Source: Dehalococcoidia bacterium (GTDB lineage: Bacteria; Chloroflexota; Dehalococcoidia; GIF9; AB-539-J10). From it: DNA of 64,000 nt. Positions 9,521 to 61,180 of this stretch are shown one piece after another (positions within the stretch are counted from its first letter, which is position 1; the number at the start of each line of letters is the position of its first letter). The position numbers and the translations under genes were made by a program. The stretch is taken from NCBI GenBank assembly GCA_049671165.1, contig JBATUN010000012.1, positions 23,102-87,101 on the forward strand. Direction: 5' to 3'. The notes beneath the pieces were generated by a model that saw only the letters and a program-made list of their open reading frames with translations, was not told where the DNA came from and did no database searches.

Positions 9521-11155
9521 GTGACAACGAAGAATAGAAAAATTCTCTTACCAGCTCTGCTCTCTATTGCCCTCGTCTTCAGCCTGATTCTTCCCGCGGT
9601 GATTGCTGAAGCTTCAGCAACTACCCTACAGGGGACGTGGGTGCTGGAATATTACGGAGAACCGGGGAATCTCATAGCACCTTACCCGGACAAAGATACT
9701 ACACTCACAATCAGTGGCTCTGACTTTAGTGGACATGCCGGCATAAATTCGTATTATGGGAAGTGGAAAGTGGTTGGGGACAAATTATTGATTATAGAGG
9801 GCTATAGTACAGAAGCGGCTGGCCCCGAACACCTGATGGAACAGGAAGATCGCTATTTTCGTACCCTTTTTGTCCCTGAGGTGACTTACGAGATCACCAA
9901 TGGTAAATTGACCCTATCCTCCAGCGAAGGACTGCTCGTATTCATAAGTGAGGCTGCTGACAGGGGCCACGGGGAATGCAACGTCGGCAACTGGACGGAC
10001 ATCAAGCAGGTCGCCGCAGGCTCCAGCCACACCGTGGGTCTTAAGTCTGACGGCACCGTGGTCGCCGTGGGACGCAACGATTATGGGCAGTGCGACGTCG
10101 GCAACTGGACAGACATCACCCAGGTCGCCGCAGGCGGCCATCACACGGTGGGGCTCAAGGACGACGATACTGTGGTCACTGTGGGAGATAACTCCAACGG
10201 GCAGTGCGATGTCGGTAACTGGACAGACATCACCCAGGTCGCCGCAGGCGGTGCACACACGGTGGGGCTCAAGGCAGACGGCGGCGTGGTCGCCGTGGGG
10301 TTCAACCACTACGGGCAGTGCAATGTCGGCGGCTGGGGAAATATCACCAAGGTCGCTGCAGGCTTGTATCACACAGTGGGGCTTAAGGCCGACGGCACAG
10401 TGGTTGCCGTGGGATTGAACGACTACGAAGGGCAGTGTGATGTCGGCAACTGGACAGACATCACCCAGGTCGCCGCAGGTTACTCTCACACAGTGGGGCT
10501 CGAGTCCGACGGCACCGCGGTCGCCGTAGGATGGAACGACGATGGGCAGTGCGATGTAGAGGGCTGGACGAACACCACCCAGGTCGCCGCAGGCTTCTAT
10601 CACACGGTGGGGCTTAAATCCGACCACACGGTGGTCGCCGTGGGGTTCAACTACTACGGGCAGTGCAATGTCGAGGGCTGGACGGACATCATCCAGGTCG
10701 CCGCAGGCGACTGGCACACGGTGGGGCTTAAATCAGACGGCACCGTGGTCGCCGTGGGTGGTGCCATCCCGGACGATGCTATCCCGGACGATGCTATCCC
10801 CGAAGCCGGGTGCTTCATCGCCACCGCAGCCTACGGCACATCAATGGCAGAGGAAATACAAGTTCTGCGTGAGTTCAGGGATGAATACCTCCTGATCAAC
10901 TCGCTGGGACAAGCCCTGGTAGGCCTTTATTACAGGGTCAGCCAGCCGATGGCCGAGTTCATAACTGAGCATCCCAGCCTGAAGCCGATAGTGAGGGCTG
11001 GGCTGGTGCCCACTGTGGCCATGAGCACCGTAGTTGTCAACACCACTCCGGCCGAGAAGATAGTCATATTAGGCTTGCTGGCGCTGGTTTCAGTGGCACT
11101 GGCTGTATGGGCAACGAGTCGGCGAGGCAGAGGGCCAGAATATACCTCAGGGTGA
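9521..11155 (+). CDS. Secreted/anchored protein: META (HslJ-like) domain + ~9 RCC1-like beta-propeller repeats + C-terminal CFIATAAYG anchoring module + TM helix
   Basis: Signal peptide. META-like block LQGTWVLEYYG...AGINSYYGKW...LTLS. Tandem ~39-aa repeats CDVGNWTDITQVAAG.HTVGLK.DGTVVAVG.N.YGQ. C-terminus DAIPDDAIPDDAIPEAGCFIATAAYG...REFRDEYLL followed by a hydrophobic helix. GTG start, with the SD immediately adjacent (atypical spacing). Confidence 0.7.
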   Translation: MTTKNRKILLPALLSIALVFSLILPAVIAEASATTLQGTWVLEYYGEPGNLIAPYPDKDTTLTISGSDFSGHAGINSYYGKWKVVGDKLLIIEGYSTEAAGPEHLMEQEDRYFRTLFVPEVTYEITNGKLTLSSSEGLLVFISEAADRGHGECNVGNWTDIKQVAAGSSHTVGLKSDGTVVAVGRNDYGQCDVGNWTDITQVAAGGHHTVGLKDDDTVVTVGDNSNGQCDVGNWTDITQVAAGGAHTVGLKADGGVVAVGFNHYGQCNVGGWGNITKVAAGLYHTVGLKADGTVVAVGLNDYEGQCDVGNWTDITQVAAGYSHTVGLESDGTAVAVGWNDDGQCDVEGWTNTTQVAAGFYHTVGLKSDHTVVAVGFNYYGQCNVEGWTDIIQVAAGDWHTVGLKSDGTVVAVGGAIPDDAIPDDAIPEAGCFIATAAYGTSMAEEIQVLREFRDEYLLINSLGQALVGLYYRVSQPMAEFITEHPSLKPIVRAGLVPTVAMSTVVVNTTPAEKIVILGLLALVSVALAVWATSRRGRGPEYTSG

Positions 11156-11190
11156 AATAGATTGAAACGGGATAAACCCTGCCCCTACGG

Positions 11191-11217
11191 GATTGCTTCG
11201 CTGCGCTCGCAATGACA
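11191..11217 (-). repeat. Small structured repeat copy 6 (reverse orientation, upstream of ilvD)
   Basis: gattgcttcgctgcgctcgcaatgaca is the reverse complement of tgtcattgcgagcgcagcgaagcaatc. Confidence 0.8.
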
Positions 11218-11393
11218 ACTGAACAATTGCAGAACAACCTCAAAAAGACATTGCATTGACGCTAGTTAGGCATTGTGCTATTTTATGCGACATAATTCAT
11301 TTGAGGGACATGAGTTAAATCAACCCCAAGAAGTCTGACCTCAATCTACAGGGGCCTCCACGAAGACTGTGAGATTTTCATAGGGTGGGTTAA

Positions 11394-13061
11394 ATGCGAA
11401 GCGACATGGTGAAGAAAGGAATCGAGCGAGCACCTCACCGGGCGCTGCTGCGGGCTGTCGGTTGCTCATCAGATGACTGGGATAAGCCATTTATCGGAGT
11501 AATCAACAGCTTTACTGAGATTGTTCCCGGGCACATCCATCTGCAAACAATCGCCAAGGCGGTCAAACAAGGGATTCGCAGTCGGGGCGGGGTGCCTTTT
11601 GAGGTCAATACCATAGCTGTTTGCGATGGTATCGCCATGAATCACCCAGGAATGAAATACAGTCTGCCCAGCCGAGAACTCATTGCTGACTCGGTGGAAA
11701 TCGTTGCTCAGGCTCATGCTTTCGATGGCCTGGTATTCATCCCGAATTGCGATAAGGTCATTCCGGGGATGTTGATGGGCGCGGTCAGGCTTAATTTACC
11801 CTCTGTCTTTGTCAGTGGTGGTCCCATGCTAGCCGGGAAGCTTGTCTGGAGAAACGCTGCCAGGTCCGTTGACCTTATTAGTGTCTTTCAAGCTGTAGGC
11901 GAAGTGGCTAAAGGCAAGATGACCGAGGCTGAATTGCAGGAACTCGAAACGGTCGCCTGTCCTGGTTGTGGGAGCTGTGCCGGCATGTTCACTGCTAATA
12001 CCATGAATTGTCTCAGCGAGGCCTTGGGGATGGCTTTGCCGGGTAATGGGACGATACCCGCGGTGGAAGCACGGCGTCGGCAACTAGCCTATGAAGCCGG
12101 GCAGCAAGTCATGGAAGCACTGGCCAAAGACATTCGGCCCGAAGATATCATCACCAGCGATTCCCTTTACAATGCCTTTGCCGTGGACATGGCTCTGGGT
12201 GGCAGCACGAATTCCGTGTTGCATCTAACCGCCATAGCGCATGAGGCTGGGCTGGATTTCCCCTTATCCCTTATAAACAAGATTAGTGACTCCGTTCCTC
12301 ATATTTGTAAATTAAGCCCGGCCAGCGACTATCATATTGAAGATTTAGACTTAGCCGGTGGTATTCCTGCGATAATGCATGAGCTATCGGGACTACTGAA
12401 GCTCGAGGCAAGCACCATCTTGGGCAAGCCATTAGGTGACATAGCCAGGAAAGCTAAAGTCAGAAATAGAAAGGTAATCCGCCGCCTGTCGCAACCGTAT
12501 GCTCCTACTGGTGGCATTAGCATATTATTTGGCAATTTGGCGCCTGATGGCGCCGTGGTGAAAAACGCTGCAGTAGCTCCTGAGATGCTGGTTCATCGGG
12601 GTCCAGCGAGAGTTTTCAATAGTGAGGAGAAGGCTACGGCAGCGATAATGAAAGGCGAATTTAAGTCAGGTGAGGTAATAGTCATTCGCTATGAAGGCCC
12701 CAAGGGAGGGCCGGGAATGCGGGAGATGTTAGCAGCTACCTCCCTTCTCAGTGGTATGGGCATGGACAAAAAGGTGGCTCTTATTACAGATGGACGCTTT
12801 TCCGGAGGCACGCGAGGAGCAGCCATTGGTCATGTCTCTCCTGAGGCGGCAGAAAAGGGTCCGATAGCGGCTTTGAGGAATGGCGATATTACTAAAATAA
12901 ATATACCTAAACACAAATTGGAAATAGAACTAAGTCAAAAGGAGCTAAAACAACGGTTAGCTGCGTTACCTGCCTTCAAACCCAGGATTAAGACTGGCTA
13001 TCTCAAGAGGTATAGTGATAGAGTAAGCTCCGCCAGCACTGGGGCGGTGTTTACCGAATAA
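11394..13061 (+). CDS. ilvD: Dihydroxy-acid dehydratase
   Basis: Motifs [15 protein letters not shown] and [18 protein letters not shown]. Length 555 aa. Confidence 0.95.
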
Positions 13062-52098: not shown

Positions 52099-52172
52099 GT
52101 GAGCCGTGCGAGACTCGAACTCGCGACACCCTGATTAAAAGTCAGGTGCTCTACCAGCTGAGCTAACGGCCC
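52099..52172 (-). tRNA. tRNA-Lys (anticodon UUU)
   Basis: Minus-strand sequence GGGCCGTTAGCTCAGCTGGTAGAGCACCTGACTTTTAATCAGG...TTCGAGTCTCGCACGGCTCA folds as a cloverleaf with anticodon loop CUUUUAA. Confidence 0.85.
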
Positions 52173-52196: not shown

Positions 52197-52472
52197 CTAT
52201 TTTTCCACTGACAAGAGATTAGAAATATGGATGGCGAAAGCCGGGTGAATGTCGCAAATAAACCCTCCGTCCACTGCCTCCACAGAGAAGGTCACCCTGT
52301 TGGGCTTCCTGAGGGGATCGCCAAATTTATTAAGCCCCGTTTCATCCCAGGGCATATTGTGGCCTAGTATTTCCAGCAGGCCCTTCACATCCCTCGGGTC
52401 CTCTACTATCACTTCGAAAGGAAGCTGATGTGCTAACCCTTCCAACTGGCTATTATTTAGCTTTATCCTCAT
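52197..52472 (-). CDS. Hypothetical small protein
   Basis: 91-aa ORF between tRNA-Lys and the tRNA-Gly 3' fragment. No recognisable motif. Confidence 0.3.
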   Translation of the reverse strand: MRIKLNNSQLEGLAHQLPFEVIVEDPRDVKGLLEILGHNMPWDETGLNKFGDPLRKPNRVTFSVEAVDGGFICDIHPAFAIHISNLLSVEK

Positions 52473-52511: not shown

Positions 52512-52554
52512 AGCGGGTGATGGGATTCGAACCCACGACGTCTTACTTGGGAAG
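52512..52554 (-). repeat. Displaced 3' portion of a tRNA-Gly(CCC) gene (anticodon loop to acceptor 3' end; att-site remnant)
   Basis: Minus strand reads TTCCCAAGTAAGACGTCGTGGGTTCGAATCCCATCACCCGC. Acceptor CACCCGC complements the orphan 5' half GCGGGTG at 59813-59852, 7.3 kb away. Confidence 0.7.
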
Positions 52555-52627
52555 CTAGTAAGTTACCAAATGGCTATTGACATGGTTACGTACTAGCATT
52601 ATCATCATTCATAGATAAGTTTAGGGA

Positions 52628-53818
52628 TTGTTCTGTGGGTTGTCAAGATTATGTATGGAGGTGAATGTGAAGACTTTAGAAGTGATGGAGAAGGTTTTGA
52701 AAGGTAAGAGGTTGAAGGCTAATACTCAGAGGCATTATCGTGAAGCGTTGGGTTCGTTAGCCCAGTACTCGGAAGATTGGCCTGTTAGTGGTGTGATAAT
52801 CAATGAGTGGTTAGCGTCTTTGGAAGGGTATGCTGATTCGACGATAAAGATGTGGTTTGACTGTGTTAATGCTGCGGGTAAATATGTATTGAAGGCATAT
52901 AAGATAGCTAATCCGTGTGCTGAGGCTGAGAGGCCGAAGGTAAGTAAGAAGAGGCGTAGGTATTTTACTGTTGACGAAATGGTCGCGATTATTAAGGCTT
53001 GTGTGAACGATTTTGAATTGGCGCTGGTGATGACGTTGATAGACTCTGCCTGTCGTATAGGTGAGCTGGTGGACTTAAGAGGTGGTGATGTTGGTGATGG
53101 TTTCATTAATGTGGCTGGTAAGACCGGGCAGAGGCGTTATAGGCTTGACGTGAGACTGTGCGAGAAGTTGAGGGATATGGCTGGTGGTGAGGATAAGCCT
53201 GTATTTAAGAACAGGTTTGGTAGGTTTTACCAGGATGGTGATGGTCTAGGGCATAGAGTTCGATATATAGTGGAACGTGCCGGTATTAAGGGTAAGAAGA
53301 TCGGTGTACATACGATAAGGCACAGTAGTGCTTCTTTGGTGGCAAGTGTGGGTATGAAGCCATTAGTGGTGAAGGCTCTGCTTCAGCATGACGATGTGAA
53401 TACGAGTATGGTGTATATCCATGATGTTGAAGATTTGATAATTGGTACTGATGAGTATAGCCCTCTCAAGCTAGTGGAGAAGCGGTATAAAGAAGCTCAT
53501 AGTGGTGAGGTTGAAGGTGAGCAGTTGCGGTTGAGTGATGGTCAGTTTGGTGATGAGTCTGTGGCATTAGTGCCTGTTAGTGGTGAGGTGGTAGATGCTG
53601 GTGGAGTAGATGTGCTGGTTAGTGATATGTTCCCTGAAATACCAGATGGTATTGTGGTCAGGACGTTGTTGAAGTACGAGGAGTTGATGCTAGTACGTAA
53701 GATCTTCATGTGGTACGCTAGCTATAATCCCGGTAATAGTGATGCGGCTAGGGTACGTGAGCTTATGAAGCGTATGCTTCGTAAGGGTGGCAGTGAATTT
53801 TATGCGAAGAGACAATAA
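52628..53818 (+). CDS. int: Tyrosine-type site-specific recombinase (phage integrase family)
   Basis: N-terminal SAM-like core-binding region. C-terminal catalytic residues in HTIRHSSASL...SMVYIH (HxxR...Y). Probable start 52655-52667 (SD GGAGG at 52657-61). Confidence 0.85.
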   Translation: MFCGLSRLCMEVNVKTLEVMEKVLKGKRLKANTQRHYREALGSLAQYSEDWPVSGVIINEWLASLEGYADSTIKMWFDCVNAAGKYVLKAYKIANPCAEAERPKVSKKRRRYFTVDEMVAIIKACVNDFELALVMTLIDSACRIGELVDLRGGDVGDGFINVAGKTGQRRYRLDVRLCEKLRDMAGGEDKPVFKNRFGRFYQDGDGLGHRVRYIVERAGIKGKKIGVHTIRHSSASLVASVGMKPLVVKALLQHDDVNTSMVYIHDVEDLIIGTDEYSPLKLVEKRYKEAHSGEVEGEQLRLSDGQFGDESVALVPVSGEVVDAGGVDVLVSDMFPEIPDGIVVRTLLKYEELMLVRKIFMWYASYNPGNSDAARVRELMKRMLRKGGSEFYAKRQ

Positions 53819-53935
53819 AAGGAGATGGAGGATGTAGTCGTGTGGATAATGTGGCTTTGTGATACAATTGCATAGGTTCAAATTTGAGCAATGTGGAGAC
53901 GTAGCTCAAGTAGTTGAGGTTATAAGGGAGTTGAA

Positions 53936-54295
53936 ATGAAAAAGGCAGGAACAATCGTTGGTGTTATAGCGGTTATCATCATTATTGTTGTAGTTCTAAC
54001 CTGTGATGGGATTGTCCCTAGGGATTCTACATTCGACATAAAGATATCTGGAACAGGGGGGCTTGAGTTTTCAGGCAGCTATATGGTAACGACATCAAAT
54101 GGGCAAGTAGTATCTAAATCAGTAGATGGGATGATTCCAGAGCAATATTCAGTGTCTGGAACACTAGTTTCAGTCATGTTCCAGAAACAAACCGAAGAAG
54201 GTACTCTTAGAGTTGAAATAGTTAAGGGAAATGAGGTTATTGCGAGTGAAGAGACAACTGCGGAGTATGGTATTGTTTCTGTAGCCACAGATTAA
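53936..54295 (+). CDS. Small membrane-anchored protein (hypothetical, island cargo)
   Basis: N-terminal TM IVGVIAVIIIIVVVL, then a beta-rich soluble part. SD-like GGGAG upstream. Confidence 0.4.
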   Translation: MKKAGTIVGVIAVIIIIVVVLTCDGIVPRDSTFDIKISGTGGLEFSGSYMVTTSNGQVVSKSVDGMIPEQYSVSGTLVSVMFQKQTEEGTLRVEIVKGNEVIASEETTAEYGIVSVATD

Positions 54296-54579
54296 AGAGA
54301 GGGTGATACTCGTACTAGGTCTTAGCCTTCATGGATGGGGTTTGGGTGGTCGGAGATTCAAAGACTCGAATGTCAGATAGAATTATGATGAAACTACGAT
54401 AGAGCGTATAAGGGGGATTAGACCTCGTTCTTACCTAGACCGTAGTTATTGACTTGTATTTCTGCAATGAGGACGCTAGGGCGTGCAGCGTTCTTCTATC
54501 GATAGTTCAGTTTTTATGTCTATCCTATATGTTATACTAAGATAAGCGTGAATCGTAAATTCAATTTTGGAGGTGCAGT

Positions 54580-54747
54580 ATGCCAGTACCAGCTGAAGTA
54601 CAAGCGGCTATAGTAACAGTGTCGGGGGAGTGGGCGAGATATCTTGTGACTGTGAGGGAAGAAGACCGGGAAGAGGTTCTCATAAAACTGTTGAAGTATT
54701 ACAAGGATGCTTACGAAGACCTTAAGAAGTTACAAAGTAAGTTCTAA
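54580..54747 (+). CDS. Hypothetical 55-aa protein (island cargo; not in the ORF track, <60 aa)
   Basis: ATG preceded by GGAGGTG. Sequence MPVPAEVQAAIVTVSGEWARYLVTVREEDREEVLIKLLKYYKDAYEDLKKLQSKF. Confidence 0.3.
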   Translation: MPVPAEVQAAIVTVSGEWARYLVTVREEDREEVLIKLLKYYKDAYEDLKKLQSKF

Positions 54748-55051
54748 CTGTAACGTTAAACAGGTGTAATAGTAGGTGTAATTGTTTGTTGGGAACGCTG
54801 TGCGTTCGCACTAGTAGGTAAGATACCCTGTTCTTAGTAGAAGGAGGGCGTTTATGCGCCGAGTGGTTCGTGGGGACGGAAGTGAACGTGGGACAAAAAG
54901 GAGGTGAAGATAGTAGGTGGTGATTGGGTCAAGGATTTAAGACTGAACGAAGTATCAGCGTGGGTTGACTACGTAGGATAATAGTTATAATGAGAATAAG
55001 GGGGTGTCGCTCCCTTATCAGAAGTTAAACAGAAAGGGAGGTAAGATATTA

Positions 55052-55456
55052 ATGGCAGGAAACGAGACAAGGGAACCAACACTAGGTGAAATTATAGAAG
55101 AGATTAAGAAGTCCAAGGATGAGATTATGAAAGAGATTGAAGGTTCTAGAATATCAAGGGAACCAACCCTAGGTGAGATTATGGAAGAGATTAAGGGGTC
55201 CAAAGATGAAGCTGTAAAAAGTAGCGAGGGTTCTAGAATAGCAATGTGGCTCACGCCTGCTGCATTTGGCGGTGCAATAGCATTATTTGGGGTTACACGT
55301 TTAGCAGGAGTGTCACTTAGCGATTGGGTCGTTTGGTGGCCAGATGCGCTGGTCGCAGCTGTGGGGCTTGGATTTATGATTTGGAGTGGGAGTATGGCAG
55401 CTAGGGCACAAGAACGATTTAGAGGCAGATGGAATGAGCCACCACCCAGATTTTAA
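55052..55456 (+). CDS. Two-TM membrane protein with duplicated N-terminal REPTLGEI(I/M)EEIK.SKDE repeat (hypothetical)
   Basis: Start at MAGNETREP after SD GGGAGG. Two hydrophobic helices, AAFGGAIALFGV and ALVAAVGLGFMIWSG. Confidence 0.45.
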   Translation: MAGNETREPTLGEIIEEIKKSKDEIMKEIEGSRISREPTLGEIMEEIKGSKDEAVKSSEGSRIAMWLTPAAFGGAIALFGVTRLAGVSLSDWVVWWPDALVAAVGLGFMIWSGSMAARAQERFRGRWNEPPPRF

Positions 55457-55511
55457 TGCAAGTTATAGACTGTTGACTGATGGCACCTAGATTGGTGCGG
55501 ATTATAACAGT

Positions 55512-55551
55512 GGGGTAAAGGGTGGCAATAGCTGATTTACCCCGTTCTTGT
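55512..55551 (+). terminator. Candidate intrinsic terminator hairpin
   Basis: GGGGTAAAgggtggcaatagctgaTTTACCCC (8-bp stem) followed by a T-rich gttcttgtc. Confidence 0.3.
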
Positions 55552-55697
55552 CTAGAACGTGGTCTGCCTGCTGAGTTTAAGAGCACACATGGGTTGGCTA
55601 GTAAGATGGCGAATAAGAATATGCAAGGTGTTGACGATTGTGAGGCAAGGACTGTAAACTTGGCATGAGTGTGTGAAGTAACGGTAGACAGGAGACT

Positions 55698-56486
55698 ATG
55701 GGAACTATAGATATAAGACTTGAGGAGACAACGGTGGAGCAAGAGGGGAAGAAGTATGCTCTTCGTGTATATAGCGAGGCTGCGTTAGAGGGTTTCAATC
55801 CAAAAGTGTTGGGATTGGGGAATATTGGTCAGAGGTCAAGACGAACTGATGTTATTGCTGCAGTATTTGACCTAGCGGGTTTCACAGGTTTTTGTAGTCA
55901 AGTCGACCCTCATTTGATCCTGCCAAGGTTCCTTAAGGAATTTTTAGATTGGCTTTTTGGAGATATCAAATCTGAGTTTGAAGAAAGAAGATTTGGGGAA
56001 AAGGTTCTGTTGTATTCGGATTTGCCGTTTTTTGCGAAATTTACGGGGGACGGCGTAGTGTTCCTATGGGATACAGCGAATATGGACATGCGTAAGGTGT
56101 GCAATGTTCTGGTGATCGCGGAGCATATATGGGATAACTATAGTAAAGCTTTTGCGCCGAAGGCGAAAAGGTATTTATCGCAGGTACCCAAAGCTCTAAA
56201 GTGCGGATTGGCATGCGGTCTGGTGTGTTCAGTAGGTAAGGGGGAAGATTATGTGGGGGCATGTATTAATATTGCGTCAAGATTGCAGAAGCTAAGTAAT
56301 ATGCGGTTTTGTTGTTCGCAAAGAGGAATAAACATTGAAGAAGGAATGCTGAAGAAGACTCAAGAAGCATATGTGACTAAACGTGTGTCAATAAGAGGAA
56401 TTGGAAGTGACGAGCGAGTCATAGTTGGAAAATCGGATTTTGAGAAGCTGTCAAAAAGGGATAAGGCAATCTTTAAGGACGTATAA
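55698..56486 (+). CDS. Standalone class III nucleotidyl (adenylyl/guanylyl-type) cyclase domain protein
   Basis: Three hallmark motifs present: VIAAVFDLAGFTGF (FxDxxGFT, metal Asp), KFTGDGVVFLWD (K..GDG, second Asp), GLACGLVCSVGKGEDYVGACINIASRLQ (G.H.G.V..G......Y...G..VN.ASR). 262 aa with no other domain. Confidence 0.7.
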   Translation: MGTIDIRLEETTVEQEGKKYALRVYSEAALEGFNPKVLGLGNIGQRSRRTDVIAAVFDLAGFTGFCSQVDPHLILPRFLKEFLDWLFGDIKSEFEERRFGEKVLLYSDLPFFAKFTGDGVVFLWDTANMDMRKVCNVLVIAEHIWDNYSKAFAPKAKRYLSQVPKALKCGLACGLVCSVGKGEDYVGACINIASRLQKLSNMRFCCSQRGINIEEGMLKKTQEAYVTKRVSIRGIGSDERVIVGKSDFEKLSKRDKAIFKDV

Positions 56487-56565
56487 GTGGAAACTGGGGG
56501 GGAAAGGTTCTTGTCAATTAAGCCCTATGATAGCGTTAGTTTCGGATTGTTACCAAGAACGAGTG

Positions 56566-56594
56566 TTGACTTGTTGATTGTGTTCGTGTAGAAT
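56566..56594 (+). promoter_or_regulatory. Sigma-70-like promoter (TTGACT-17-TAGAAT)
   Basis: Near-consensus -35 and -10 with 17-nt spacing, upstream of the 56769 gene and Rep. Confidence 0.5.
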
Positions 56595-56723
56595 ATTCGT
56601 GGTTCTTTAAAAGTTGAATCATGGAGTGACTATAGGTAATCGGTGAAAAACATACCGACAGCCTGCCTAGCTTAGCTGGGCCGGTGTCCGTTAGCGTCGG
56701 AGAAATTAGGTCGGGATTCCGTG

Positions 56724-56751
56724 AGGATCGCTATATAGCGGTCCTCTTTTT
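56724..56751 (+). terminator. Perfect 9-bp palindrome + T6 (attenuator/terminator-like) in the leader of the 56769 gene
   Basis: GGATCGCTATATAGCGGTCC followed by TCTTTTTTG, 18 nt before the SD AAGGAGG. Confidence 0.45.
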
Positions 56752-56768
56752 TGTTTAAGGAGGTGAAT

Positions 56769-57101
56769 ATGATGGACAGAGAAGAATTTTTCGTTGATGG
56801 TGTTCCTGAGAGCGGTTATCTTTGGTGTCGTGAGTGTGAGCGTGCTTATAAATATGGGTCATATAAGGAGGAGGTTTATAGATTGCCGGAGCAGTTTCCG
56901 ATTGAGTTGCGTACGGGGTTTTTTTATTTAGGTATTACTCCGTCTGATTTGAAGGATATAGATGGGAGTATACGTCAGATGTGTCCTTACCCTGGGTGTG
57001 ATGGTGACACTGTTTTTGATGCGTTTGAGTGGGAATGGCTGAGGTCATATCATCCTGAATATCCTGATGTTCCTGAGGATGGTGTTGTGTATCGTTTGTG
57101 A
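56769..57101 (+). CDS. Small Cys-rich (zinc-binding?) protein (hypothetical)
   Basis: Start MMDREEF after SD AAGGAGGTG. Motifs CRECERAY and CPYPGCDGD. Confidence 0.4.
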   Translation: MMDREEFFVDGVPESGYLWCRECERAYKYGSYKEEVYRLPEQFPIELRTGFFYLGITPSDLKDIDGSIRQMCPYPGCDGDTVFDAFEWEWLRSYHPEYPDVPEDGVVYRL

Positions 57102-57339
57102 TGGGTGAGGGGAAAAGATTTAAGGTGTTGGTGAGGTTGGGGCATCTTTAGATGGTTGGTGTTGTTGAGGGGACTTGTTGGCGTTCTGGAGTGAATTTGA
57201 GGGGATTGTTGCAAGGCTCAGGCAGAAGGCGGTGGCGGTACGCCACGCCTTGCCTATTTGTTGTTTTGTGGTGTCAGATGGTTGGGCTGGTCCTTTGTAG
57301 GAGTTGTGCGGGTAATAGTGGGAGGTCTTATCTCACTTG

Positions 57340-57465
57340 ACTATAACTACAAACTATCTCTATATAATGACTATACAGTAGATATATAGGAGTAATACTT
57401 AAGGAATAATCTCTATATACTAATAGGTGAAATGTTACTTGATTCGTGGGTTGCGGGTGTCATAG
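57340..57465 (+). promoter_or_regulatory. AT-rich iteron-containing region upstream of Rep (candidate replication origin/promoter)
   Basis: Direct repeats TCTCTATATA (2 copies) and the palindromic-ish CTATACAGTAGATATATAG, in a sharply AT-rich stretch between G/T-rich flanks. Confidence 0.35.
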
Positions 57466-58284
57466 ATGAGGAAACGTAGGGCTGAGTGGCGTGAGTTAAC
57501 GAGTGCTGAGAAGCGAAAGTATGCTATGGCTGTTAGGCGTTTGAATTTGGGGATTTGGGGTTATGCGATAAGTAGTCTAAGGGCTGTTCATCTGACGACG
57601 AGGGAAGGTAATGATAATACGCCGTGGGTGTTCGCCAGGGATTTAAGGAAGCTGGTCAACAGTTTTAGACGTGATGGGTATGATTTAGAGTACAACGGTG
57701 CTTTAGAGTTTTCACCGGAGAAGCATCTATTGCATTGGCATGGGATATTTAGGATAAAGGGCGGGTTCTTCTTGAGGCCTATGATTTCAGGGGAAGATAA
57801 GGCAGCGGTGAGGCGTGAGTTAGGTGACCGCTGGAACAAGTACCATGGTGCTTTTGCGGTGCAGATTACCGAAGTTGCGAGTAAAAGGGACCTGGAGAAG
57901 TATATATTGAAGCACATACTGAAAGAGTACATAGGGGTAGATGAGGATATGCGGAATAAGTTTCTATTCTCGAGAAAGTGGATGCGTGAAGGGTGGAAGA
58001 AGGTTGAGGACCTGGCGAAGTTGTGGGTGTTAGGCGGTCCTGAGTCCGATGGTGGTTTGAGTGCGATGTATATGACGAAAGAGGGATGGGATAAGGTCAA
58101 TGAGATAGTGCAGGCTTGGGCTCAGAAAGAGACAGGTATGTTTCGTGGCGCAGGTGTTAATGGTGGCCTGAGTGGTTATCTGTATATGGAATTAGGTCGT
58201 ATTCGTGAGGCGTTTGGGAGTGGGTTTGAAATTAGGCGTGATGGTGAGGTTTGTCGAAGTAAGTTTGAGTACGTGGATTTTTAG
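57466..58284 (+). CDS. HUH-endonuclease-like rolling-circle replication initiator (Rep) candidate
   Basis: Motif I-like AVHLTT, HUH motif LLHWHGIF, Tyr motif KYILKH (Y..K). Basic N-terminus. Followed by an SSB-like gene and preceded by an AT-rich iteron region. Confidence 0.45.
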   Translation: MRKRRAEWRELTSAEKRKYAMAVRRLNLGIWGYAISSLRAVHLTTREGNDNTPWVFARDLRKLVNSFRRDGYDLEYNGALEFSPEKHLLHWHGIFRIKGGFFLRPMISGEDKAAVRRELGDRWNKYHGAFAVQITEVASKRDLEKYILKHILKEYIGVDEDMRNKFLFSRKWMREGWKKVEDLAKLWVLGGPESDGGLSAMYMTKEGWDKVNEIVQAWAQKETGMFRGAGVNGGLSGYLYMELGRIREAFGSGFEIRRDGEVCRSKFEYVDF

Positions 58285-58287
58285 GAG

Positions 58288-58668
58288 GTGGATATGTTTT
58301 TGACAAGGATTGCTAGTACTGTATCGGGTCGTTCGACTAAGGGAGCCCGGCGAAGCTATGCTCCCGATGGTAAGGTGATTGGTGAGTTCTTTTTGGCTTG
58401 TGGTAATGGAAGTGTGAAGTATCCGACAATGTATGTGAAAGTTTGCGTATGGGAAGATTTAGCGGAGAAGGCGCTGGCTGTTATAGACCGGAAAGGTTTG
58501 AATGTTGAAGCTAGTGGTTTTCTGTTGATTAAGCAGTATGAAGGTGAGTATGGGAAGTCGGTTTTAATTGAATTGAAGGATGTTCGTGAGGTTAAGTTGT
58601 TTAATAGAGATGGTGAGTTAGAGCAAGTGCTTATTGATGGTGAAACCAAGAGAAAGGAGGTGAACTGA
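58288..58668 (+). CDS. OB-fold single-stranded-DNA-binding (SSB)-like protein
   Basis: Pattern ...GEFFLACGNG...YVKVCVWEDLAEKA...GLNVEASGFLLIKQYEGEYGKSV resembles the SSB OB core (W..V.W..LAE...KG..V.V.G.L). 126 aa. Confidence 0.4.
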   Translation: MDMFLTRIASTVSGRSTKGARRSYAPDGKVIGEFFLACGNGSVKYPTMYVKVCVWEDLAEKALAVIDRKGLNVEASGFLLIKQYEGEYGKSVLIELKDVREVKLFNRDGELEQVLIDGETKRKEVN

Positions 58669-58949
58669 TGGAAGAAGCGGTTCCGTTTAGTATTGATTTG
58701 AGTGATGAGGATATAGATGTGGTTGTGAAGGCGTTAGGTAAGCGCTTTAAGTTTGGCAAAGATGGTCCTGTTAAGACTGTAGCTTTGGCTTTAGTAGTGG
58801 CTGAGTTAGAGGTTGCCATGTATAAGACGTTGATGGATAAAGCTGGATGTGTTAATTTAGATGATGTTGTGAATAAGGTGAGGTTTTGGAGTTTGGAGCA
58901 AGGTTCGTCTTTAAGTGAGCGATGGCTGCGTCGTCATGGGATTACGTGA
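58668..58949 (+). CDS. Hypothetical protein (island cargo), start overlaps the SSB-like stop
   Basis: 93-aa ORF, ATGA overlap with the upstream gene. Confidence 0.35.
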   Translation: MEEAVPFSIDLSDEDIDVVVKALGKRFKFGKDGPVKTVALALVVAELEVAMYKTLMDKAGCVNLDDVVNKVRFWSLEQGSSLSERWLRRHGIT

Positions 58950-58967
58950 GTATGATGGGTGTTGCTA

Positions 58968-59042
58968 TGGAGCGGGAGACGGGACTCGAACCCGCGACTC
59001 TCTGCTTGGGAAGCAGATGTTCTACTACTGAACTACTCCCGC
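58968..59042 (-). tRNA. tRNA-Gly (anticodon CCC), copy A, CCA-encoded, atypical D-loop (no GG)
   Basis: Minus strand GCGGGAGTAGTTCAGTAGTAGAACATCTGCTTCCCAAGCAGAGAGTCGCGGGTTCGAGTCCCGTCTCCCGCTCCA. D-loop AGTAGTA lacks the conserved G18G19, so it may be impaired. Confidence 0.7.
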
Positions 59043-59295
59043 GTGAGTGCTGTTATGGCTATTGATGGTGAGGTACTGCGGTGAGTATCCTCCCCAATGG
59101 CCATTCAGGTATTGCTTGGATTGCAGGAGGTGGCTAGATAGATTGATACCACTACAGGTAATGGAGTTTGCTGAGTGAACTGGATGGAGAATTATGTCTG
59201 GGGTGCATGATAGGCTTGTAAGAGGCTTAAAAGTGCCTCTGAGGGCATTGCGGGGCAAAGTGACAGGCGGTGGCGATCGCTTGCGACAAGCCACT

Positions 59296-59523
59296 GCAAG
59301 AGAAGAGAAGAAAAGAGAAAGAAGAACAGAAGGAGAAAGAGAAGAAGCAAGAAAAGAAGCAAGAAAAGAAGCAAGAGAAGGAGAGAGAGAAGAAGCGAGA
59401 GAGGAAGCAAGAGAAGAAGCAAGGGAAGAAGGAAGAGAAGAAGATAAGAGAAGAGAAGATAAGAGAAGGGGAAGAAGAGAAGAGAAAGAAGGGAAGAAGC
59501 GAGAGAAAAAGAAAGAGAAGAAG
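59296..59523 (+). repeat. ~230-nt homopurine (A/G, few C, 2 T) low-complexity tract with GAAGCAAGA(A/G)AA-type periodicity
   Basis: Direct reading shows only two T in 228 nt on the + strand. Generates spurious K/E/R-rich ORFs in several frames. Confidence 0.8.
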
Positions 59524-59672
59524 TAACAAGAAGAGAAGAGGGGATACTGGCAATTATTTTTGTATCCCTGTCAAAGAAAGAATTTGAAGGGCAGAAGTAG
59601 GTGCGGAAGTGGTGGAATGGGGGCCGTGGAATGGAGAGTTGGGTGAGGGTTATGATGGCGGGAAGTGAAGTG

Positions 59673-59744
59673 AGCGGGAGACGGGACTCGAACCCGCGAC
59701 CCTCTGCTTGGGAAGCAGATGCTCTACCACTGAGCTACTCCCGC
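59673..59744 (-). tRNA. tRNA-Gly (anticodon CCC), copy B (canonical D-loop, no encoded CCA)
   Basis: Minus strand GCGGGAGTAGCTCAGTGGTAGAGCATCTGCTTCCCAAGCAGAGGGTCGCGGGTTCGAGTCCCGTCTCCCGCT. Confidence 0.85.
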
Positions 59745-59812
59745 GTGGGTGCTGTTATGGCTATTGGTAGTGAGGTAATGTGTTCGATATATCCCTCGAA
59801 TAGCCATTCAGG

Positions 59813-59852
59813 TATTGCTTGGGAAGCAAGCACTCTACCGCTGAGTTACACC
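59813..59852 (-). repeat. Orphan 5' half of the original tRNA-Gly(CCC) (acceptor GCGGGTG through anticodon loop)
   Basis: Minus strand GCGGGTGTAACTCAGCGGTAGAGTGCTTGCTTCCCAAG, then continues into the conserved ~90-nt unit (CAATACCTGAATGGCTATT...) rather than a T-arm. Confidence 0.7.
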
Positions 59853-59869
59853 CGCAATTAGTTATATTA

Positions 59870-61180
59870 TCAGGCGGGAGGACCGATAATGTCAAGGACA
59901 GATTTCTCTAGTGGTCTCATTGTCAACAATTTCCTGGCAATTTTAGGATATTTGGCAATGAAGAGTAATTCATCTTCCACGAGTGGCTTTTGCGCTTCCA
60001 CATTGGCATACCTTACTAGTTCCAGAATCTCTTCAGCTTGTCGGTCATCTTCAAACGACACCTCCATCTGCCCCATTATGTGACTGAAGCCTGATATGCC
60101 GATATATTGCCCTGAGCATATCTCTCTGCCAGTCTCTACAAGCTCTGGATCACCTCTACCCAGTTCGTTGAAGCTATATAGCTCGTAGTTCTCCGGGTCT
60201 TTCAATACTCCATCAGCGTGAATACCAGAACCGTGGGCGAAGGCGTTAGCACCGACGCCAGGCTGGTTTATAGGAATGGGGACCCTAAAAGCATAGCTGG
60301 CGAATTTACTTACTTTCCAAGCCTTTGTCAGGTCTATGGGCTTTCCTATTCGATATTCTTCAGCGAATCCCTTGGATTTGGTAATAGCTAGAGCCGTGGC
60401 TATTAGGTCAGCGTTACCGGCTCTTTCTCCAATACCATTGAGGGTGGTGTTTATGTAAGCATCCTGTCCACCGTCTATAGCCCCTTTAGCCCCGGCAAGG
60501 GAATTAGCCGCAGCCATTCCCAGGTCGCCATGGCAGTGGAGCTCGATAGGTATTCCAATGTTTTCTGCTAGTATCTTGGTGCTCTCGTAAATAGTAAATG
60601 CATTGTCATAGCCCAGGGTATCACAATACCTGAGTCGGTCAGCCCCGTGTTCCTTGGCTGCCAAGCCGAATCTAACTAAGAAATCTATTTCTGTTCTGGA
60701 GGCATCTTCGGCATTTACGCCTATGCTTTCAGCTCCATGGGCACGGGCCGCTTCTACAGCATCGACCATCATGACTACGATATCCTCTCGATCCTTTGTG
60801 CCCCCGAATTTGCCTTGAAGCATTTGGTCCGATGTGGAAATGGAGATGTTAAGGTGCTTAATACCAGGGACAAGCTTGAAGGTTTTTTCCACATCAGCAA
60901 CAACTGCCCTTATCCACCCCCCCAACCGGATGGGCTGCAAGACGCCCATCTCAGCCAGTTCCAGGTTTGCCTGAAGGTAAAGCGACTCGTGTCTGGTCGT
61001 CGGGAAACCAAATTCGGACTGGAAGACACCCATGTCATTGAGGTACATATTTATCATGGTTTTTTCCAGCTTAGACAAACCGAGGTTGGCGGTTTGAACG
61101 CCATCGCGATTGGTAACATCTATGAAATAAATCTTGGCCATCGTTGCCTCCCGGATGGGTGAATTGGATAAAGATAGCAT
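59870..61180 (-). CDS. 2-isopropylmalate synthase / homocitrate synthase / citramalate synthase family protein (short form, no LeuA regulatory domain)
   Basis: N-terminus MAKIYFIDVTNRDGVQT and DRE-TIM barrel HxH metal site (LHCHGDLGMA). Likely start 61142. Confidence 0.8.
   Translation of the reverse strand: MLSLSNSPIREATMAKIYFIDVTNRDGVQTANLGLSKLEKTMINMYLNDMGVFQSEFGFPTTRHESLYLQANLELAEMGVLQPIRLGGWIRAVVADVEKTFKLVPGIKHLNISISTSDQMLQGKFGGTKDREDIVVMMVDAVEAARAHGAESIGVNAEDASRTEIDFLVRFGLAAKEHGADRLRYCDTLGYDNAFTIYESTKILAENIGIPIELHCHGDLGMAAANSLAGAKGAIDGGQDAYINTTLNGIGERAGNADLIATALAITKSKGFAEEYRIGKPIDLTKAWKVSKFASYAFRVPIPINQPGVGANAFAHGSGIHADGVLKDPENYELYSFNELGRGDPELVETGREICSGQYIGISGFSHIMGQMEVSFEDDRQAEEILELVRYANVEAQKPLVEDELLFIAKYPKIARKLLTMRPLEKSVLDIIGPPA

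Follow-up and report, generated by a model that had tools for sequence, protein, structure and literature searches.

In tRNA-dependent lysogeny, as described in actinobacteriophages (Fionnbharth/K4, cluster L, Gaia and others), a common core of only 8–17 bp lies in a host transfer RNA (tRNA) gene, the tRNA is not rebuilt upon integration, and lysogens are viable only if the phage supplies a tRNA of that isotype (Guerrero-Bustamante and Hatfull, mBio 2024, PMC10865867). Sibling phages use the classical core of 43–50 bp, and the authors expected the phenomenon to occur outside the Actinobacteria (PMC10865867). An earlier hint, cited in the same paper, came from prophage Lj965 of Lactobacillus johnsonii, and later papers mention tRNA-dependent lysogeny in some rhizobial prophages. 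The classical islands in tRNA and transfer-messenger RNA genes, for which the anticodon loop is a known sublocation of integration (Williams 2002), are gathered in the Islander database (PMC4383910). Here we describe a locus in a Dehalococcoidia bacterium that resembles the first of these systems and differs from the second. The window, that is, the whole stretch of DNA that was analysed, comprises 64 kb of a contig from a metagenome-assembled genome (MAG), and the host is seen through these 64 kb. Positions 52555–59817 of the window are very probably mobile DNA that a tyrosine integrase put into the anticodon loop of a host tRNA-Gly(CCC) gene, with the element bringing a tRNA-Gly(CCC) of its own.

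A host tRNA gene parted at its anticodon loop

On the minus strand of the window, ARAGORN called one tRNA-Lys(UUU) and two complete tRNA-Gly(CCC) genes, its only tRNA calls. The locus also holds the two halves of a further tRNA-Gly(CCC), which had been reported in an earlier note on this DNA, written from the letters alone. The orphan 5′ half (59820–59857, minus strand; GCGGGTGTAACTCAGCGGTAGAGTGCTTGCTTCCCAAG when read from 59857 to 59820) represents the first 38 nt of a tRNA-Gly(CCC) that is different from the two complete ones. The displaced 3′ half lies on the host side of attR (52512–52554, minus strand; CTTCCCAAGTAAGACGTCGTGGGTTCGAATCCCATCACCCGCT when read from 52554 to 52512) and was aligned to the 3′ part of the tRNA in the empty site described below. 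Their acceptor strands are complementary (GCGGGTG in the 5′ half, CACCCGC in the 3′ half). A direct repeat, CTTGGGAAGC, covers the anticodon loop and adjoining stem bases at 52546–52555 and again at 59818–59827, with the junction set by comparison with the empty site; the length of this common core is 10 bp here and reaches 14 bp in relatives. Neither junction was called as a tRNA by ARAGORN or Rfam, and at attL the 5′ half runs on into arm sequence (CAATACCTGAATGGC...), not into a tRNA 3′ half.

Host genes frame the locus on both sides. Beyond the 3′ half lie a host open reading frame (ORF) of 91 amino acids (52197–52472, minus strand; 208 homologues) and the tRNA-Lys(UUU) gene (52099–52172, minus strand; 71.2 bits in Rfam), which serves as the left landmark. 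The right landmark is an HMGL-like gene of the homocitrate/isopropylmalate synthase family (59870–61180, minus strand), with PF00682 found on the homologous gene in related loci. We fetched related loci (labelled L below) through exact look-ups and scans of genome and metagenome collections, and the homologue of the 91-residue ORF led to empty sites, L163–L169. Their order is HMGL-like gene, TTGACA...TATAAT promoter, an intact tRNA-Gly(CCC) (GCGGGTGTAACTCAGCGGTAGAGTGCTTGCTTCCCAAGCAAGACGTCGCGGGTTCGAATCCCGTCACCCGCT), the 91-residue ORF and tRNA-Lys, the last of which holds the same position in occupied and empty loci. The 5′ 38 nt of the intact tRNA are identical to the orphan half in the window, and when 12 occupied sites are aligned to the empty one, the break falls within CTTGCTTGGGAAGC, the anticodon loop with its adjoining stem bases. 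Because the intact gene stands between the same neighbours in the empty site, the two halves are the parts of one broken host gene; the empty-site homologues to which the earlier note had pointed thus hold the undivided tRNA.

Element and host share only the 10–14-bp core, so that two orphan halves are left and the tRNA is not rebuilt. The complete tRNA-Gly(CCC) of the element would compensate for the broken host gene. It lies 72 nt from the crossover and is co-oriented with the broken gene, and integration would therefore bring it directly behind the host tRNA promoter. A promoter-like site, TTGACA-18-GATAAT (59866–59895, minus strand; 11 of 12 positions in a consensus scan), ends 8 nt before the orphan 5′ half and now reads into that half, the adjacent arm (unit B) and the nearer element tRNA (copy B). 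An equivalent site precedes the intact tRNA of L163 and is present in every occupied locus. The consensus scan gave no promoter-like site inside either of the two units that precede the element tRNAs, and no terminator-like site was seen in 58700–60000. We infer that copy B is transcribed from the captured host promoter, in a transcript that would comprise the 5′ half, the arm and the tRNA, the last presumably being freed by RNase P or normal end processing. Copy A, the farther element tRNA, has no such promoter. The attP junction before integration would be expected to read ...AATAGCCATTCAGGTATTG-CTTGGGAAGC-TAGTAAGTTACCAAATGGCTATTGAC..., and attB ...GACGTCTTRCTTGGGAAGCAAGCACTCTACC....

This layout recurs across a family. 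The integrase has 293 homologues, from sediment and subsurface metagenomes, and in the 13 loci with an integrase at least 68% identical the order is constant: host promoter, 5′ half, 72-nt unit, complete GCGGGAG-type tRNA-Gly(CCC), cargo, integrase, a AATGRCTATTGAC site, core, 3′ half, 91-residue ORF and tRNA-Lys. The suggestion in the earlier note that the elements supply their own tRNA-Gly is thereby extended to at least 13 related loci with a host 5′ half, a unit and a complete element tRNA. Regular expressions run over all fetched loci counted 14 attL, 19 attR and 7 attB junctions and no attP. The tRNA-Gly(CCC) target is also hit in other host contexts (L116, L112 and L084).

The case for the element tRNA as a substitute for the broken gene is made most strongly by the covariation of cargo tRNA and target tRNA. 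The smallest case, L006 (CP070842.1, the chromosome of Dehalococcoidales bin10, about 9930–11530), is an element of ~1.6 kb with just three parts: integrase, att arm and complete tRNA-Gly(UCC). The element splits a host tRNA-Gly(UCC) at the anticodon loop in the order host 5′ half, unit, complete tRNA-Gly(UCC), integrase and 3′ half; a classical duplication of the 3′ half, also considered for L006, was rejected on inspection in favour of this layout. A tRNA-Val(CAC) is split at CTTCACACGC in L130 and L141, where the element carries a tRNA-Val(CAC) in reversed orientation ~130 nt from the host 3′ half. The target is tRNA-Ala(UGC), split near the anticodon loop, in L160, L159 and L013, and an intact tRNA-Ala(UGC) comes right after the integrase. 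Two of these loci have a degenerate tRNA-Gly(CCC)-like sequence behind the att arm (L160, 16570–16644; L159, 7055–7129, minus strand), with a broken acceptor stem (ATAAGAG...CTCCTGC), which looks like the relic of a target switch. Two further variants complete the range. L128 follows the classical mode, with a hybrid tRNA-Gly(UCC) directly behind the host promoter and a displaced 3′ half. The clade of L003, L104 and L103 (60–64% integrase identity) uses a site that is not a tRNA gene, with the core GCTRGTTCAAGRAGGAGG just upstream of a gene for an Fe–S protein; it has the same three-site arm geometry and carries no tRNA (L104, 9880–13300, being the one complete element).

The attP arm and two element tRNAs

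Unit B (59745–59817, minus strand), now on the element side of attL, contains two copies of a short motif (site 2, 59757–59766; site 1, 59798–59809). A motif search located a third, AATGGCTATTG, in the P′ arm (site 3, 52569–52579, plus strand), where it overlaps the −35 hexamer of the integrase promoter; it is kept as AATGRCTATTGAC in all 12 aligned loci. The CAATAGCCAT that the earlier note had seen adjoining the 3′ fragment is present here, at 52570–52579 on the plus strand. The motif AATRRYYATTS has seven matches in the window against 1.3 expected, a number reached in none of 100 shuffles, and five of the seven fall at att regions. Around the core, the arms are arranged as site 2, ~33 nt, site 1, ~9 nt, core, ~14 nt and site 3, and distant integrases (36–54% identity) are accompanied by ATGTACAT-type motifs at the corresponding places. 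Judged from this arrangement, the unit (72–78 nt) is the P arm of attP, its sites changing together with the integrase, and the 10-bp sites are most likely bound by the integrase or an accessory protein.

The earlier note had also proposed a conserved hairpin in the unit. The inverted repeat itself is present, with a stem of ATGGCTATT and AATAGCCAT that pairs in both window copies; conservation of a structure did not stand up. Across 13 related units, site 1 varies (AATGGCTATT, AATAGTCATT and AATGACTATT), site 2 is invariant and no compensatory change occurs, paired cells amount to 81%, the same as in shuffles, and RNAalifold returned no consensus structure for the unit. The inverted repeat is only apparent, because AATRRYYATT, a quasi-palindromic 10-bp site, is nearly its own reverse complement and is repeated. 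A small inner stem around GATA in the unit looked compensatory by eye.

A conserved, outward-facing TTGACA marks a promoter-like site beside the integrase start (52618–52646, minus strand), at the same place in all aligned loci; the TTGACA is shared by the tRNA-free clade. The site is directed towards the integrase promoter and across the core. If the element were circular, transcription from this site would enter the arm and the element tRNA; after integration the site is aimed at the host 3′ half, the 91-residue ORF and tRNA-Lys.

Both complete tRNA-Gly(CCC) genes of the earlier note were recovered by ARAGORN, and their Rfam scores exceed the RF00005 gathering score of 29 bits. Copy A (58968–59042, minus strand; 70.4 bits) belongs to an element of the Rep type, defined below, and encodes its CCA end; copy B (59672–59744, minus strand; 74.2 bits) has no encoded CCA and represents the family consensus, being identical or nearly so to the tRNA of 12 related loci. 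Both differ from the host tRNA by about 20%. Between them lie four transitions, all private to copy A when compared with the family consensus: C11U and G24A, G18A in the D-loop and one in the variable region. The C11U/G24A pair is compensated, the D-stem changing from GCUC/GAGC to GUUC/GAAC with pairing kept, and three of the four changes are C-to-T on the plus strand, in the same direction as the compositional skew of the element. Such drift fits relaxed selection on a redundant copy. That copy A is defective is plausible from its sequence, given G18A, the absence of a promoter of its own and its redundancy with copy B, yet it still scores 70 bits as a tRNA.

The repeated block comprises the tRNA with the ~78 nt that precede it, and its two copies are 702/703 nt apart. 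Within it, 58970–59078 matches 59672–59780 (109 nt, 93%) and 59096–59119 matches 59799–59822 (24 nt, 96%), with a divergent patch between the two stretches; as a whole, the blocks form two 152-nt stretches that are 91% identical. The reiteration described in the earlier note is therefore real, but its estimate of a ~90-nt unit is replaced by the tRNA plus ~78 nt. Unit A (59043–59119, minus strand), which we assign to the Rep-type element as the P arm of its attP, has site 2 at 59055–59064 and site 1 at 59095–59106, and its core is clipped to CTTGG (59115–59119), which is the CCAAG remnant of the earlier note. The fusion of unit B to the orphan host 5′ half, likewise seen in that note, runs through the shared core CTTGGGAAGC. 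Every sequence feature listed in the note was recovered.

The two copies come from different kinds of element. Type I elements have a Rep gene and an SSB-like gene, and usually a tRNA with encoded CCA (the main element of the window, L083/84, L086/87, L090, L103 and L116). Type II elements have no Rep, their last gene is rich in K, E and R codons and has its own strong promoter, and their tRNA ends in ...GCTCAC (L001, L002, L089, L091–L093, L098, L101 and L111). L088 is a mosaic of Rep and a type II right end. In the window, 57190–58954 (Rep, SSB-like gene and a 93-residue ORF) is homologous to type I elements, and 59158–59671 (plus strand) is 83–87% identical to the right ends of L089, L092, L093, L098 and L101. 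By these homologies, copy A is that of a complete Rep-type element of ~6.6 kb, and copy B that of a right-end remnant of ~700 bp of the Rep-less type. The remnant contains a K/E/R-rich low-complexity ORF (59194–59526, plus strand) built on ~19 copies of a 12-nt purine repeat, AAGAAAGAGAAG (59298–59523; TRF). In type II relatives, a TTGACA-16-TATAAT promoter and an operator-like inverted repeat, CGTTCTtgtctAGAACG, precede the conserved N terminus of this gene; homology in the window begins only ~35 nt before the start codon, so the promoter has been lost.

At the middle junction the order is type II homology, a 38-nt filler (59120–59157), CTTGG and unit A, and a blastn-short search with the filler against all fetched loci found nothing. 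The simplest history would be a tandem integration followed by a deletion. A type I element would have integrated by recombination of its attP with a junction of a resident type II element, and a later deletion would account for the loss of the resident integrase together with most of the resident cargo, and for the shortening of the middle core to CTTGG. Such a pair of copies in one locus is unusual. L090, from an independent sample, bears a scar made of a truncated tRNA-Gly 3′ end and a second SSB-like gene, and C-terminal fragments of integrases lie inside L090, L094, L095 and L101. The earlier note had read the locus as the outcome of several integrations or recombinations, one after another, of related elements at the anticodon loop, and the empty site, the integrase beside the 3′ half and the two element types support this reading.

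Element genes and strand composition

All ORFs of the 7.26-kb mobile region (52555–59817) lie on the plus strand. The tyrosine integrase (52667–53818, plus strand) starts at a GTG codon after GGAGGTG and matches PF00589 (E = 7e-13) and the PHROG 1 integrase family (E = 4e-30); R130, K152, H215, R218, H241 and Y250 are invariant. A promoter-like site, TTGACA-17-TATCAT, precedes it (52577–52605, plus strand; 11 of 12 positions, a consensus match only). The integrase ORFs of the family are intact, with a ratio of non-synonymous to synonymous substitution rates (dN/dS) of 0.11–0.33 and a synonymous divergence (dS) of 0.18–0.93, values that point to purifying selection. Exact-sequence look-ups of the integrase and the HMGL-like protein, with two start choices each, returned no record; a homology search matched the integrase, read from the GTG start, at 100% identity to a protein from an NCBI ‘Dehalococcoidia bacterium’ MAG. 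A cyanobacterial host, suggested by a GCGATCGC site, was ruled out by the flanking genes and by this NCBI name.

Five cargo ORFs of 119, 55, 150, 262 and 116 amino acids follow (53936–57101, plus strand). They are function-unassigned, with no significant match in Pfam, PADLOC or the Protein Data Bank (PDB), and the 119- and 150-residue ORFs have weak PHROG matches to families of unknown function (E ~1e-3 to 9e-3). The 262-residue ORF (55698–56486, plus strand) had no match in Pfam, PHROGs, PADLOC or PDB sequences; a likeness to class III nucleotidyl cyclases, seen by eye, was unsupported and was dropped. An 87-nt tandem duplication (55068–55244; two copies, 81% match) lies within the ORF at 55004–55456 and encodes a repeated ‘REPTLGEI(I/M)EEIK’ in a protein with a hydrophobic C terminus.

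The 272-residue protein encoded at 57466–58284 (plus strand) is a probable rolling-circle replication initiator (Rep) of the HUH type. Its match to PF23343 (REP_ORF2-G2P) reaches 24.7 bits, below the cut-off of 27.8, but many of its 78 homologues carry PF23343, and H90-W-H92 and Y146-x-x-K149 are invariant. An AlphaFold model (predicted local distance difference test score, pLDDT, 85.6) gave weak Foldseek matches that recurred on the Rep nuclease domains of circoviruses, geminiviruses and adeno-associated virus. Searches of GenBank phages, PLSDB plasmids and PDB sequences found no match to this Rep. It is followed by a gene for an SSB-like protein (58288–58668, plus strand; PF00436, E = 8e-5, below the cut-off), which always comes after Rep in related elements, and by the 93-residue ORF (58668–58949, plus strand; homologue in L090), the last gene of the Rep-type element.

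Composition sets the element apart from its host. Its GC content is 43–46%, compared with about 50% in the host, and its GC skew +0.35 to +0.55, compared with about ±0.1; the skew is +0.43 for 52555–59817 as a whole and +0.33 to +0.43 in related elements (L001, L002, L083–L103 and L111). Third codon positions of the element genes contain 8.2% C and 34% G (skew 0.61), intergenic skew is 0.40, and in same-strand host genes the third-position skew is 0.00. This pattern reads as a mutational strand bias of the C-to-T kind, which would be expected of DNA that is single-stranded for part of its life. Together with a probable HUH-type Rep and an SSB-like protein, the skew would fit a single-stranded phase and rolling-circle replication. 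Pfam and PHROGs scans of the element found no structural or lysis gene families. No relatives were found among IMG/VR viral contigs, GenBank phages or PLSDB plasmids, the integrase scan of IMG/VR giving only distant (24–35%), unrelated integrases. As far as its gene content is visible, the element is not recognisable as a temperate phage, and ‘lysogeny’ would not be an applicable term.

Mobility, rival explanations and known systems

Compared in pairs, the 12 occupied loci are on average 98.0% identical in the 5′ half, 98.5% in the 3′ half and 98.7% in the element tRNA, but only 76–81% in adjacent intergenic DNA and 72–77% in the att arms. Because the halves are 98% conserved despite the diverged flanks and the integrase dS, the split state either arose recently in each lineage or is undone time and again by excision. 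There is also discordance between flank and integrase identities: L001 and L002 have flanks 98/94% identical and integrases 86% identical, and L092 and L111 a flank 84% identical and integrases 91% identical. Two nucleotides of the anticodon stem are missing from the 5′ half in L001 (14120–14145) and L002, and L002 has in addition a C2–A71 acceptor mismatch (3′ half, about 9877). The host gene would be dead in these two loci: excision could not bring back a functional tRNA, and the host presumably cannot do without that of the element; such decay looks like an addiction-like ratchet.

Several points weigh against the reading of the region as mobile DNA with a substitute tRNA. No excised circle or attP junction was found in any fetched contig, and there was no circular contig among the fetched loci. 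All ten contigs of one close host lineage (P0124) are occupied, and integrase and host flanks diverge on a similar scale, so that the pattern is partly explained by elements that stayed in place for long and were inherited vertically. Promoter capture does not hold throughout the family, since L130/L141 and L160 have their cargo tRNA elsewhere than behind the host promoter. A single-copy or needed tRNA-Gly(CCC) in this host, seen through 64 kb, would be a supposition. The Rep and SSB assignments are sub-threshold in Pfam for the window proteins and the fold matches are weak, and Rep-less elements are equally skewed, so that a Rep in cis does not explain the skew. Finally, the middle junction (59120–59157) is unlike a canonical left end of an element, and tandem integration with deletion is a reconstruction.

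Some of these points would suit a fossil locus, in which one ancient integration was inherited vertically, the elements became immobile or domesticated and the copies arose by local rearrangement. The lack of attP or circular forms among the fetched loci, the full occupancy of the P0124 lineage, the broadly similar divergence of integrase and host flank, and the lack of relatives in the viral, phage and plasmid collections are all in keeping with it. We nonetheless consider it improbable, although it is the best of the rival accounts. Its halves would have remained 98% conserved while nearby neutral DNA diverged by 20–25% and integrase dS rose to 0.9, and its integrase ORFs would have stayed intact at a dN/dS of 0.11–0.33. 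It leaves the discordant flank and integrase identities and the mosaic cargo (2.9 to 7.3 kb) unexplained, as well as the hits on the same target in other host contexts (L084 and L116) and the origin of copies A and B from two distinct element types. A skew of the single-strand type also runs throughout the element and is not seen in host genes.

An assembly artefact, with two strain variants joined into a two-copy locus, is very unlikely. The window does come from a MAG contig, and many related contigs break inside the element, as strain heterogeneity would have it. The copies are nonetheless 9% different and have different flanks, and are unlikely to have been collapsed or chained by a simple repeat error; the contig is colinear into host genes on both sides, and the independent sample L090 holds a comparable composite with a truncated second tRNA. 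Contigs of occupied loci (L178–L187 and many of L083–L162) often end a few hundred bases past the integrase, which suggests strain-level heterogeneity of cargo within samples.

We give hardly any credence to a bacterial split tRNA, whose halves would be transcribed separately, pair through AATGGCTATT and AATAGCCATT and be joined as in archaeal trans-splicing. The halves are conserved like functional tRNAs (98%), the window has 10 nt of complementarity after the 5′ half and before the 3′ half, and the outward promoter-like site is aimed at the 3′ half. The host is, however, a bacterium (ruvC, yebC and the Dehalococcoidia assignment), and no splicing endonuclease is known from bacteria. The complementary stretches are copies of the quasi-palindromic site, of which a third copy is present and which also occurs in the clade with a non-tRNA target; site 1 is found in either orientation among relatives, and there is no covariation. 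At 9 and 14 nt from the junction, the stretches show by eye no evident bulge–helix–bulge geometry. The 2-nt deletion in the anticodon stem of L001 and L002 and the acceptor mismatch of L002 also speak against joining, and two intact tRNA-Gly(CCC) genes at the same locus mean that the halves are not the sole source. A plain duplication, which would produce the two-copy locus without integrating elements, can be dismissed almost outright: it accounts for the two 152-nt blocks of 91% identity at a 702-nt spacing, but the sequences to the left of the copies are not duplicates and match two different element types, both copies differ by ~20% from a host tRNA whose intact gene stands in the empty site, and the region has an integrase, a core repeat and att-arm sites at its borders.

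Integration into the anticodon loop with a tRNA supplied by the element therefore remains our preferred reading, and it invites a broader, tentative picture that we regard as possible but doubtful in its full extent. The elements, 1.6–7.3 kb in size, might form an undescribed family of very small Dehalococcoidia elements with a 1.6-kb core and a single-stranded rolling-circle phase, in which a portable backbone of integrase, attP and tRNA acts as an addiction and promoter-swap device. The halves would be kept intact by frequent excision or would decay as in L001 and L002, making the element impossible to lose; target and cargo tRNA would be exchanged together when the specificity of the integrase changes, and Rep-less forms would be satellites of Rep-bearing ones.

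The principle of disrupting a tRNA gene and bringing one’s own is already known, and has been shown experimentally so far in actinobacteriophages only. The present locus extends this strategy to another phylum and to tiny elements that are not phages, which suggests that it is a general solution for short-core integrases. The family offers a natural comparative series, with a classical restoring relative, full-tRNA variants for four tRNAs and a variant with no tRNA and a non-tRNA target, and the series shows how target choice and tRNA cargo co-evolve. For annotators, orphan tRNA halves and ‘extra’ tRNAs near integrases can mark island borders, and the element-borne tRNA can be the functional copy; homology-based island finders miss such borders because they expect a long 3′ repeat. 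The minimal 1.6-kb module of integrase, attP and tRNA could serve as a compact means of integrating DNA in Dehalococcoidia, for which genetic manipulation is difficult.

Compared with known systems, two kinds are set apart by features that were looked for in the sequence: neither trans-spliced halves nor a restored tRNA appears to be present in the window. Split or ‘recently split’ tRNAs of archaea (Nanoarchaeum, Caldivirga and Desulfurococcales) were reportedly described by Randau et al. in 2005, Fujishima et al. in 2009 and Chan et al. in 2011. The likeness lies in halves parted at position 37/38 by kilobases and in the proposal of mobile elements as the cause; those halves are trans-spliced through a bulge–helix–bulge and are the sole source of the tRNA, whereas here, in a bacterium, they look like inert att remnants beside intact substitutes. 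Classical islands share with this locus a tyrosine integrase at one end, a crossover in the anticodon loop, a displaced 3′ tRNA fragment at the far end and a hot spot for tandem arrays. They carry ~40–50 bp of the 3′ part of the tRNA, which regenerates the gene, a feature found in the relative L128, whereas the window has a core of the 10–14-bp class, an orphan 5′ half and a whole tRNA supplied by the element. Integrative HUH Rep elements and single-stranded DNA prophages are alike in having genes on one strand and a strong strand bias, and the probable Rep here, with its candidate HUH and tyrosine motifs and the SSB-like gene after it, recalls theirs; they differ in that here no morphogenesis genes were detected, a tyrosine integrase targets a tRNA, and Rep-less siblings have the same backbone and skew.

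The closest match is tRNA-dependent lysogeny. Both systems combine a tyrosine integrase, an attB that overlaps a host tRNA, a short core and a tRNA that is not rebuilt; both carry a matching cargo tRNA (two in the window, one in each of 13 relatives, and the tRNA-Gly(UCC), tRNA-Val(CAC) and tRNA-Ala(UGC) pairs); and both include classical-mode relatives within the integrase family (Boilgate among the phages, L128 here). The elements described here differ from the phages in their size of 1.6–7.3 kb, in having no recognisable virion genes and no relatives in phage collections, in the probable HUH Rep and SSB-like protein of some members, and in their host, which belongs to the Chloroflexota and not to the Actinobacteria. 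The requirement for the tRNA is proven in the phages; here we infer it, with indirect support from the 98.7% conservation of the element tRNA across loci. The Fionnbharth tRNA is encoded at another place, under a promoter of its own, whereas the cargo tRNA here abuts attP, 72 nt from the crossover, and is co-oriented behind the host promoter. Within this one integrase family, target and cargo tRNA visibly switch together.

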